NCBI RefSeq assembly: GCF_033153115.1
Contig: NW_026889779.1
Location: 27,900,001 to 27,964,000, forward strand
DNA length: 64,000 nt
Origin: Saccostrea echinata
Lineage: Eukaryota
Direction of reading: 5' to 3'
Both the position numbers and the translations under genes were made by a program. Shown piece after piece: positions 10,001 to 13,000 of this stretch. A model generated the notes under the pieces. That model saw only the letters and a program-made list of their open reading frames with translations. It was not told the origin of the DNA and did not search any database. How positions within the stretch are numbered: position 1 is the stretch's first letter; each line of letters begins with the position of its first letter.

Positions 10001-13000
10001 TGTGGCATCTTACACAAGAAAATGTGCCCGTCTCAGGGATAAAGGTAAAATAACAGCTGTCACCTGTAACATCAATAAAGGTAACCTTCAGGATAAAGGT
10101 AAAATAACAGCTGTCACCTGTAACATCAATAAAGGTAACCTTCAGGATAAAGGTAAAATAACAGCTGTTGCCTGTAACATCAATAAAGGTAACCTTCAGG
10201 ATAAAGGTAAAATAACAGCTGTCACCTGTAACATCAATAAAGGTAACCTTCAGGATAAAGGTAAAATAACAGCTGTTGCCTGTAACATCAATAAAGGTAA
10301 CCTTCAGGATAAAGGTAAAATAACAGCTGTTTCCTGTAACATCAATAAAGGTAACCTTCAGGATAAAGGTAAAATAACACCTGTAACATTAATAAAGGTA
10401 ACCTTCAGGATAAAGGTAAAATAACAGCTGTCACCTGTAACATCAATAAAGGTAACCTTCAGGATAAAGGTAAAATAACAGCTGTTGCCTGTAACATCAA
10501 TAAAGGTAACCTTCAGGATAAAGGTAAAATAACAGCTGTCACCTGTAACATCAATAAAGGTAACCTTCAGGATAAAGGTAAAATAACAGCTGTTGCCTGT
10601 AACATCAATAAAGGTAACCTTCAGGATAAAGGTAAAATAACAGCTGTTTCCTGTAACATCAATAAAGGTAACCTTCAGGATAAAGGTAAAATAACACCTG
10701 TAACATTAATAAAGGTAACCTTCAGGATAAAGGTAAAATAACAGCTGTTGCCTGTAACATCAATAAAGGTAACCTTCAGGATAAAGGTAAAATAACACCT
10801 GTAACATTAATAAAGGTAACCTTCAGGATAAAGGTAAAATAACAGCTGTTGCCTGTAACATCAATAAAGGTAACCTTCAGGATAAAGGTAAAATAACACC
10901 TGTAACATTAATAAAGGTAACCTTCAGGATAAAGGTAAAATAACAGCTGTTTCCTGTAACATTAATAAAGGTAACCTTCAGGATAAAGGTAAAATAACAG
11001 CTGTTGCCTGTAACATTAATAAAGGTAACCTTCAGGATAAAGGTAAAATAACAGCTGTTGCCTGTAACATTAATAAAGGTAACCTTCAGGATAAAGGTAA
11101 AATAACAGCTGTTGCCTGTAACATTAATAAAGGTAACCTTCAGGATAAAGGTAAAATAACAGCAGAAACATAAAGGTAGCTTTTAGGATTCAGGTTAAAA
11201 TAACAGCTGTCATATCAATAAAGGTAGCCTTCAGAATAAAGTAATTAAAATAGCAGCTGTAGCATCATGAAGGGAGGCTTTGAGATAAAGTTAATTATAG
11301 CAGCTGTAGCATCATGAAGGGAGGCTTTGAGATAAAGTTAATTATAGCAGCTGTAGCATTATGAAGGGAGGCTTTGAGATAAAGTTAATTATAGCAGCTG
11401 TAATAACAGTAAAGGTAGCTTTTAAGATAAAGGTAAAATACCTTCTGATGTGTCTGTGAAGGAAGCATTAGGGACAAATATTCATGTATGTAGTCTTGAC
11501 TATAAAGTTAGATTCAAGAATAAAGGTAATATGCTGCAAGTTTTACTTCATTCAAACCCCTCTTCACTTGTTTCTGTACTGCAGCAGCAGTTTTTAGTGA
11601 ATTGCTTAAATAATGTTTATGTCTCCCAACTGATTCAATATCCAAGAGCATTTTCTGAGTACAATCAATTTATAAACTGGAGCAAGTTACCGACAAATAA
11701 GTTGATATTACAAGGATTTGAAAAGCCCTATTTAAAGTCAGTTTTTTGCATATTCTACAGTTGTTATATTTACCTTGTTTGTAAATACAACCTATCAGTT
11801 CACTGGGTCATATTTTGTCTGACATGTTTGATACCATTTGTAAGGTTATTGCTTTTATACTAAATTTGACTACAGGGTACTACAATATACTCCGCATACC
11901 TGATCAATACATAGGGCTCACGGTGAATTTAACATGGAGTGCTTACTCATTCTGACACCTAAACCCACCTGGTGTTTCCAGGGGTCCATGTTTGTGCCCT
12001 GTTCATTTTGTTTACTGGATTCATGAGATTGGTCACTGCTTGAGATCTTCACATTTTACATAAGATTTAAAGTATAATCAGTCACTGTTATATGTGTAAA
12101 GAAAGTCTCAAGGTTTAAAGTAAAATATTAATAATTATATCTGTCAATGTTAGACTATCTGCATTCTGAAAGTGTTTTAATGAAGGACAATAAATGTCTC
12201 TCCTTCAGATGTCTTAAACTTTCTGAATGCCAAAGTCAAGGTTATCAAAACGATCTAATAATCTAAAGGTCAAGGTCAAGAGAGGATCAAGATGGTTTAC
12301 ACTGTCTTATTGTCTTTAATACCAAAAATCACTTGTATATTTGAATTTTAGAACAATATGAAAGATTCTTGCCTGAAAATGGTTGTAATAGAAAAACAGA
12401 ATTGAGCTTTAAACAGTGTTTGTTCCTTCAGTGAAGGCATACCATAAAGTAGTGACAGTTAAGATTTCCCAAAAAAGAAATGAAAACAGTTCTAGCTGTA
12501 ATTTTCCTTACTCAGTGCTGCCTCTCTGAGTGACACATAAGAAGATTTGGTGTACGTGTGACACTAGATATTGTTCTGTATAATAGAAGGACACTAAACA
12601 TTCAAGTGTAATTTTGCTTTACTATAGGTGATCAGATAGCAAAGGACTTGGTGGATTATACAGATGCTGAGACCCATAACCCAAGCATGGTCAGGTCATT
12701 GTCAGAGTTTGCTTCCAATCTGTCTTCAGTGCAGGACTACAGACAAGCTCAGGTAAAGATAGGTGACATTGTCTTATTACATGACTGTAAACAAGCCCAG
12801 GTACAGATAGATGACATTGTCTTAATATGCGACTGTAAACAAGCTCAGGTTCAGATAGGTTACATTGTCTTGTTACATTACTGTAAACAAGCTCAGGATC
12901 AGATAGGTTACATTGTCTTATTACATTACTGTAAACAAGCTCAGGTTCTGTTCAGATAGGTTACATTGTCTTATTACATTACTGTAAACAAGCTCAGGTT

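Follow-up and report, generated by a model that had tools for sequence, protein, structure and literature searches.

Splice donors inside tandem repeats are already familiar, CBS and IFI6 being two genes with donor VNTRs. The closest described systems come from amphioxus and from humans. In amphioxus, mirage minisatellites, in which copies of an exon-intron boundary stand in tandem while splicing stays intact, are reported at the globins BflGb6 and BflGb9, Adh3, troponin C and PGBD5 (PMC3087553, PMC3902484), and their origin is called unclear in one of these reports (PMC3087553). For the human F7 gene, a 37-bp VNTR of intron 7 is described, with 5-9 copies, one donor in each copy and length polymorphism (Borensztajn et al. 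2006, PMC1557585). Splicing-associated tandem repeats in humans are described as repeats in introns, close to splice sites, that can alter splicing through their length (PMC10078293), and the ABCA7 VNTR represents the splicing-regulating type (PMC5954066). No genome-scale count of mirages was found in the open-access literature.

The window of this study, that is the whole stretch of 64,000 nucleotides of Saccostrea echinata DNA that was analysed (contig NW_026889779.1, positions 27,900,001 to 27,964,000), carries such an array in an intron of the FAM92/CIBAR gene; positions below count from its first letter, and features lie on the forward (+) strand unless stated otherwise. This array 1 is a mirage minisatellite: its unit, at 54 nt, is of minisatellite size and takes in an exon-intron boundary (exon end and GT), and the true boundary of the exon is the copy at one end, all others being intronic, as the continuity of Pfam positions 51 to 53 and the junction contigs attest. 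Taken alone, the locus is ordinary for its kind, and the new part is the measured rate of such arrays at donors. Array 1 runs from 10038 to 11143 and falls into 21 units by unit splitting, 17 of 54 nt and four of 47 nt (units 7, 13, 15 and 17), and TRF gave a period of 54, 21.4 copies and 92% matches, so that the roughly 21 tandem copies of an exon junction described in the initial annotation are confirmed. Every unit holds two donor-like sites, AATAAA and CCTTCAG; a degenerate distal tail (11144..11440) of 43-49 nt units follows, ending at about 11440 and including a 47-nt sub-array at 11250-11436. Over 10038-11440, the donor motif GATAAAGGTAAAA occurs 23 times, the second-donor motif AAGGTAACC 21 times, AATAAA 23 times and the AG motif CCTTCAGGATAAAGGT 21 times, which agrees with the earlier description of an AG, two donors and an AATAAA per unit. 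The higher-order duplication of units 2-7 and 8-13 was likewise recovered, as two 317-nt blocks (10092..10725) with 0 mismatches; it makes unequal exchange visible in array 1 and suggests a recent change of the array. Two points needed correction: the junction belongs to coding exon 3 and not to exon 2, since 7888-7956 is in the annotated protein, and the unit takes more from the exon than the 7 nt originally given, about 13 nt being clear and up to about 30 nt aligning in a weak gapped alignment.

With regard to the make-up of the unit, the core ATAAAGGTAA is present twice in each 54-nt unit at spacings of 36 and 18 nt, and the simplest reading of the unit is a dimer derived from an earlier duplication of the junction. 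The second donor of each unit would then exist because the core was duplicated earlier inside the unit, and AATAAA because it would differ by one letter from the exon's GATAAA within that older duplication. The unit donors score 8.0 and 7.6 bits, against a median of 7.8 for called donors; as an acceptor, the AG is weak, its 4.8 bits lying at about the 10th percentile among called acceptors while the true one has 9.5, and a 7-nt microexon taken from the unit would shift the frame. When the genome was searched at the DNA level with the array 1 unit, a search that skips very common words, 11/11 matches fell inside array 1; the unit is locus-specific and belongs to no dispersed satellite family, and a transposon or satellite origin is ruled out by the same matches.

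The FAM92/CIBAR host gene is ordinary and intact. Its protein, XP_061189719.1, is the S. echinata CBY1-interacting BAR domain protein, and four exons match positions 15-225 of Pfam FAM92 (PF06730) in order, three of them passing the curated cut-off alone. Coding exon 1 (7022..7053) starts with the ATG at 7022 and fits the N-terminus of this protein, and coding exon 2 (7888..7956, 69 nt) is also in it, the segment being missing from a C. gigas isoform. Coding exon 3 (9929..10044; PF06730 positions 15-51, E 2.4e-11) uses the donor AAG/GTAAAA, with its GT at 10045, and coding exon 4 (12628..12752; Pfam positions 53-92) uses CAG/GTAAAG. Coding exon 5 (13647..13928; Pfam positions 94-187, E 4.5e-21) is 100% identical to XP_061189719.1 and coding exon 6 (14184..14297) covers Pfam positions 189-225, while coding exon 7 (14589..14798) and the last coding exon (15116..15337), with the acidic tail and the stop, were placed by frame and protein alignment. 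The S. cucullata homologue has six additional residues ahead of exon 3; these, like the absence of exon 2 from the C. gigas isoform, are ordinary alternative splicing upstream of array 1. Intron 3 also holds dispersed-repeat fragments (11600-12080), which are matched by contigs of other transcripts. Elsewhere in the window, a long, apparently intronless ORF on the minus strand (19870-20940) has, by eye, a phosphoribosyltransferase-type look, and arrays with a period of 146-168 nt, which we take to be the size of common oyster satellites, lie at 22966-23364, 28362-30467, 37073-37536, 41103-42873 and 54725-55284.

A second mirage, overlooked in the initial annotation, sits at the next exon of the same gene. 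Array 2 (12743..13191) copies the end of exon 4 together with its donor in a 48-nt unit of 9.2 copies, and is followed by degenerate distal copies (13192..13450), the last of which keeps about 21 nt of exon end plus donor nearly intact. Among the 12 donor sites listed for array 2, five have scores of about 3 bits and one has no GT any more, and the reading frame is open as far as 12957.

Splicing across both arrays was followed in contigs of four of the six runs listed, compared over 11450-12790 around exon 4; these contigs, which drop rare isoforms, are presumed to be RNA-derived, and exon is joined to exon in them. Three of the four runs, from two studies, join the true exon 3 end to exon 4 and this to exon 5 with no repeat unit between, and the fourth covers exon 4 with identical ends. 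The first donor is thus the one taken at both arrays in the major isoform, in which array 1 leaves normal splicing undisturbed; no downstream donor was in use among the junctions listed, in contigs where rare forms are invisible. XP_061189719.1 has no insert, the repeat is absent from all six homologues listed, and a protein with the 18-aa repeat was absent from 7996 scored candidates, which is a weak test. A model attributed to Rogers has introns gained by tandem duplication (via PMC3087553). Across both junctions, the protein is collinear with five other oyster homologues, showing no new intron or exon position from the repeats, and the contigs that span the junctions contain no new exon; intron gain by tandem duplication is therefore rejected here.

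During the enrichment analysis, we considered 1.8 Mb, about 0.2% of the genome, from four gene families of one assembly, in which splice sites came from prediction and not from annotation; array starts were counted once some 125 kb of overlaps and duplicates had been masked, in a non-redundant sample of 1.68 Mb. For the discovery set, exons were located by Pfam myosin, SNF and kinesin matches in 100 of 145 clustered 10-kb regions, 45 regions with 50 of the 368 hits being left out and one intronless kinesin hit omitted. The kinase replicate comprised 80 of 141 hits, picked by eye as exon-sized and non-duplicate, with the test fixed beforehand, and a search for AMP-binding domains returned almost solely long, unspliced matches and was set aside. 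Paralogue BLAST served to extend the exons, and retrained matrices to call splice sites. Several times the exon caller settled on one of the later copies or on a site within an array; gene finders are misled by mirages in practice. Near-identical gene regions were met on contig pairs such as C36/C5, C23/C19, C54/C62 and C16/C54; they are either haplotypes left uncollapsed in the assembly or segmental duplicates of recent origin.

In the junction test, which asks for a 16-mer recurring at least twice downstream, 13/569 discovery donors were positive against 132/19077 random intronic positions (p 3e-4), and 5/556 acceptors in the mirrored test; the signal is highest at -8 to +16 and has dropped by +80. 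The kinase replicate gave 5/191 donors, two of them duplicates, against 93/19195 (p 0.003). Against intronic pseudo-donors the contrast was weaker, with 8/930 in the discovery set (p 0.04) and 3/263 in the kinases (p 0.29), some of these sites being called as exons at a later stage. Long arrays (with a period not above 130 and a length of at least 150, one of five classes tried after the first data had been seen) start at 21 of 695 donors where 4.4 were expected, a 4.7-fold excess with a locus bootstrap of 2.9-7.4 after removal of duplicates; a check proposed at the outset, whether tandem-repeat starts are enriched at exon ends, thus turned out positive in this four-family sample. By set, the observed and expected starts were 16 and 4.1 for discovery and 5 and 0.6 for kinases; for the SNF family by itself they were 1 and 1.1. 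All array classes together gave 22 against 10.8, merely a 2-fold excess, with satellites of period above 130 at 0 against 2.2 and short arrays at 1 against 4.2.

Seen from the arrays, 33 of 85 long ones begin at a predicted coding exon end, compared with 0/85 in antisense and 15/300 at random positions, and at a lower threshold, of 34 arrays at exon ends, 27 contain copies of the junction itself; four of the 21 arrays at donors are without junction copies. At exon starts, 11/85 arrays end there, seven of them with junction copies, against 3/85 in antisense and 12/300 at random positions. This de novo count of acceptors is fairer than the homology-defined one (2 against 4.7 expected), which is too low, as arrays confuse acceptor calls. 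Donor mirages are about four times as numerous as acceptor mirages; acceptors may be modestly enriched too, so that the bias may not be strictly donor-only. Acceptor-side mirages were seen at L072 (G000:C9:8084465-8094464), L037, L161, L035 and L076, and L072 has two acceptor-side and two donor-side arrays within 10 kb. Directly after a donor of L076, from gene-oriented position 3396 on, there is also a 30-nt array whose unit has, by eye, the look of the exon end but no donor of its own, possibly an old mirage. A myosin gene, L009 (G000:C36:1789759-1799758), carries donor mirages at four exons and is duplicated as L059 and L093 on C5; the two genomic copies do not agree in copy number (3.9 against 10.9 units of 49 nt in one case), which hints that length varies among haplotypes or paralogues.

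The donor excess depends on copy number. In order of rising copy number, the observed and expected arrays were 6 and 4.1, 4 and 2.5, 5 and 1.8, and 13 and 2.3, the first class being two-copy duplications and the last arrays of at least eight copies. Because the excess grows with copy number, the bias would concern growth or survival and not seeding, and the initial suggestion of repeats seeded at splice sites is not borne out, since two-copy duplications are without excess and the excess appears in long arrays; given the small counts, a mild seeding excess is possible. The exon-derived part of the units spans 3 to 59 nt (median 21), so the splice site does not set where the units begin or end. 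The periods of the 28 mirages fall 6, 12 and 10 by remainder after division by 3, with no bias toward multiples of 3, and the in-frame unit at array 1 is therefore likely due to chance. Since the two-copy class lacks an excess that long arrays show, and since periods are not biased to 3, the bias likely lies in amplification rather than in seeding or isoform tuning.

It also depends on the CpG content of the gene. Repeat-masked CpG o/e is bimodal, and a mirage was found in 23 of 114 low loci and in 0 of 53 high loci (p 1e-4); the FAM92 locus itself is low, at 0.27. Over the local background, the excess was 21 against 3.1 at low-CpG loci and 0 against 1.3 at high-CpG loci. Low-CpG loci are richer in non-mirage arrays too (63 in 114 loci against 13 in 53), the donor-level split without the SNF family is borderline (p 0.052), and exon-only CpG o/e sets the mirage loci apart weakly (p 0.067). 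Low CpG o/e predicts methylation in the Pacific oyster (PMC2996979), and the low-CpG genes that bear mirages are presumably methylated; low CpG o/e would also be tied to germline expression. The donor-side half is more uniform in 15/20 mirages (p 0.048) and in 31/59 other arrays (p 0.085), with no clear difference between the two groups, and the GC content of 0.386 in mirages against 0.376 in other arrays (p 0.057) is too small a difference to account for the donor excess.

With moderate confidence, we read array 1 as a locally born, junction-copying tandem repeat, likely neutral because the assembled transcripts examined use the first donor alone, whose length probably came from a growth bias for donor-containing repeats in methylated, broadly expressed genes. 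A short tandem duplication would first span the junction by chance, at roughly the background rate that the two-copy counts display across the sample and that we infer for the FAM92 locus; at array 1, an older duplication, still visible in the doubled core, would have come before the 54-nt unit. The most upstream donor then wins, as the contigs show, and the downstream copies would be tolerated, as the mechanism described for F7 would have it, while upstream acceptor copies would presumably compete more. Finally, pairs that contain a donor would reach the size of long arrays more often than other pairs within introns, a pattern present in the counts whose most likely cause would be instability coupled to germline transcription and splicing; slippage and unequal exchange would then follow from pausing, or from RNA-DNA hybrids, where donors are repeated. 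More tentatively, donors of methylated, germline-expressed genes might act as repeat amplifiers in general, a captured 5' splice site being made unstable by the spliceosome or the paused polymerase on each copy. If that is true, splicing-coupled mutation would write about one third of the long genic minisatellites of S. echinata, would be probable in other marine invertebrates as well, and would leave in DNA both a footprint of RNA processing and a standing raw material for intron growth and gain.

U1 protects transcripts against premature polyadenylation, and the extra donors could instead be U1 landing pads, kept or expanded by selection for exon definition or against premature intronic polyadenylation in housekeeping genes. 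The location of the excess in long arrays and low-CpG genes would suit this explanation, each AATAAA of array 1 sits 1 nt ahead of the 7.6-bit donor-like site, and GT is kept in 275/313 mirage copies, with mismatch of 0.09 at +1 and 0.04 at +2 against 0.04-0.26 at neighbouring positions, as selection would also produce. Those copies, however, were found by their likeness to the junction and are not independent within one array; GT is wanting in 7/7 copies of one array (L127:8505), the L076 units seem by eye exon-like without a donor, and most middle copies of array 2 score only about 3 bits. Every unit is moreover locus-specific, and about 95% of low-CpG donors do without an array (21/449 have one). 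We consider selection of this kind unlikely, although it is, like survival bias, a live competitor of the growth bias.

Survival bias, with no special role for the donor, is in our judgement equally doubtful: arrays touching an exon would escape the deletions that span both flanks, and so last and lengthen. An excess that climbs with copy number is what it would yield, and the acceptor-side arrays and the four donor arrays without junction copies fit it too. Arrays 35-355 nt inside introns should nevertheless be shielded in the same way, yet they are scarce, with five starts in 141.6 kb against about one per 10 kb deeper, and plain shielding by exons is disfavoured because of this scarcity; the lack of excess for satellites and the copying of the junction in most exon-end arrays speak against it as well.

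Functional splicing at FAM92, in which the BAR domain would gain 12 + 18n or 18n residues from downstream donors, or AATAAA would end a short transcript, tuned by copy number, appears improbable. In-frame repeats through downstream donors, as the initial annotation pointed out, are possible in principle, for the frame is open from exon 3 across units 1-6, up to the shift by the 47-nt unit 7 and the stop at 10422, and 12 downstream donors (+36, +54 ... +324) are in frame and stop-free; both FAM92 arrays have periods divisible by 3 and frames that are open at the start, and every array 1 unit offers an AATAAA. Its further idea of isoforms tuned by copy number is left unsupported by the use of donor 1 alone in the junctions listed, by the 6/28 mirage periods divisible by 3 and, weakly, by the absence of a repeat protein, and an insert would interrupt the FAM92 domain after Pfam position 51 and before position 53, presumably to its harm. 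That array 1 was inflated by an assembly artefact, as the two identical 317-nt blocks might suggest, is very improbable in view of its several unit variants, its degenerate tail, the 36-Mb contig and the like arrays at 28 other donors, and could alter the copy number but not the existence of the array.

The sample provides three testable constraints, namely a donor excess, its restriction to long arrays and its restriction to low-CpG genes. Should these hold genome-wide, mutation bias would become separable from selection, and thousands of natural tests of the rule that the first donor wins would be at hand.

Compared with the known systems, array 1 resembles the amphioxus mirages, as these are described, in having boundary copies that run into the intron with many cryptic splice signals and normal splicing (PMC3087553, PMC3902484), in its homogenised inner copies and diverged edge copies, and in the possibility of several arrays per gene; its host, an oyster, is a mollusc. 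As in the account of the F7 VNTR, the first unit spans the exon-intron junction, the downstream donors are identical and the most upstream donor alone is used, in F7 even where a downstream one keeps the frame (PMC1557585), whereas array 1 has 21 copies, each with two donor-like sites and an AATAAA. The human splicing VNTRs are the model for the tuning idea, and their effects are reported with genotype and RNA data (PMC10078293); array 1, in contrast, is known from sequence and contigs, with no downstream donor in use among the junctions listed. Finally, whereas the amphioxus papers, in the accounts drawn on here, describe single loci, the oyster mirages were counted against controls, and in the sampled regions they occupy about 3% of donors, make up about one third of the long genic minisatellites, favour donors about fourfold over acceptors and occur in low-CpG genes only.
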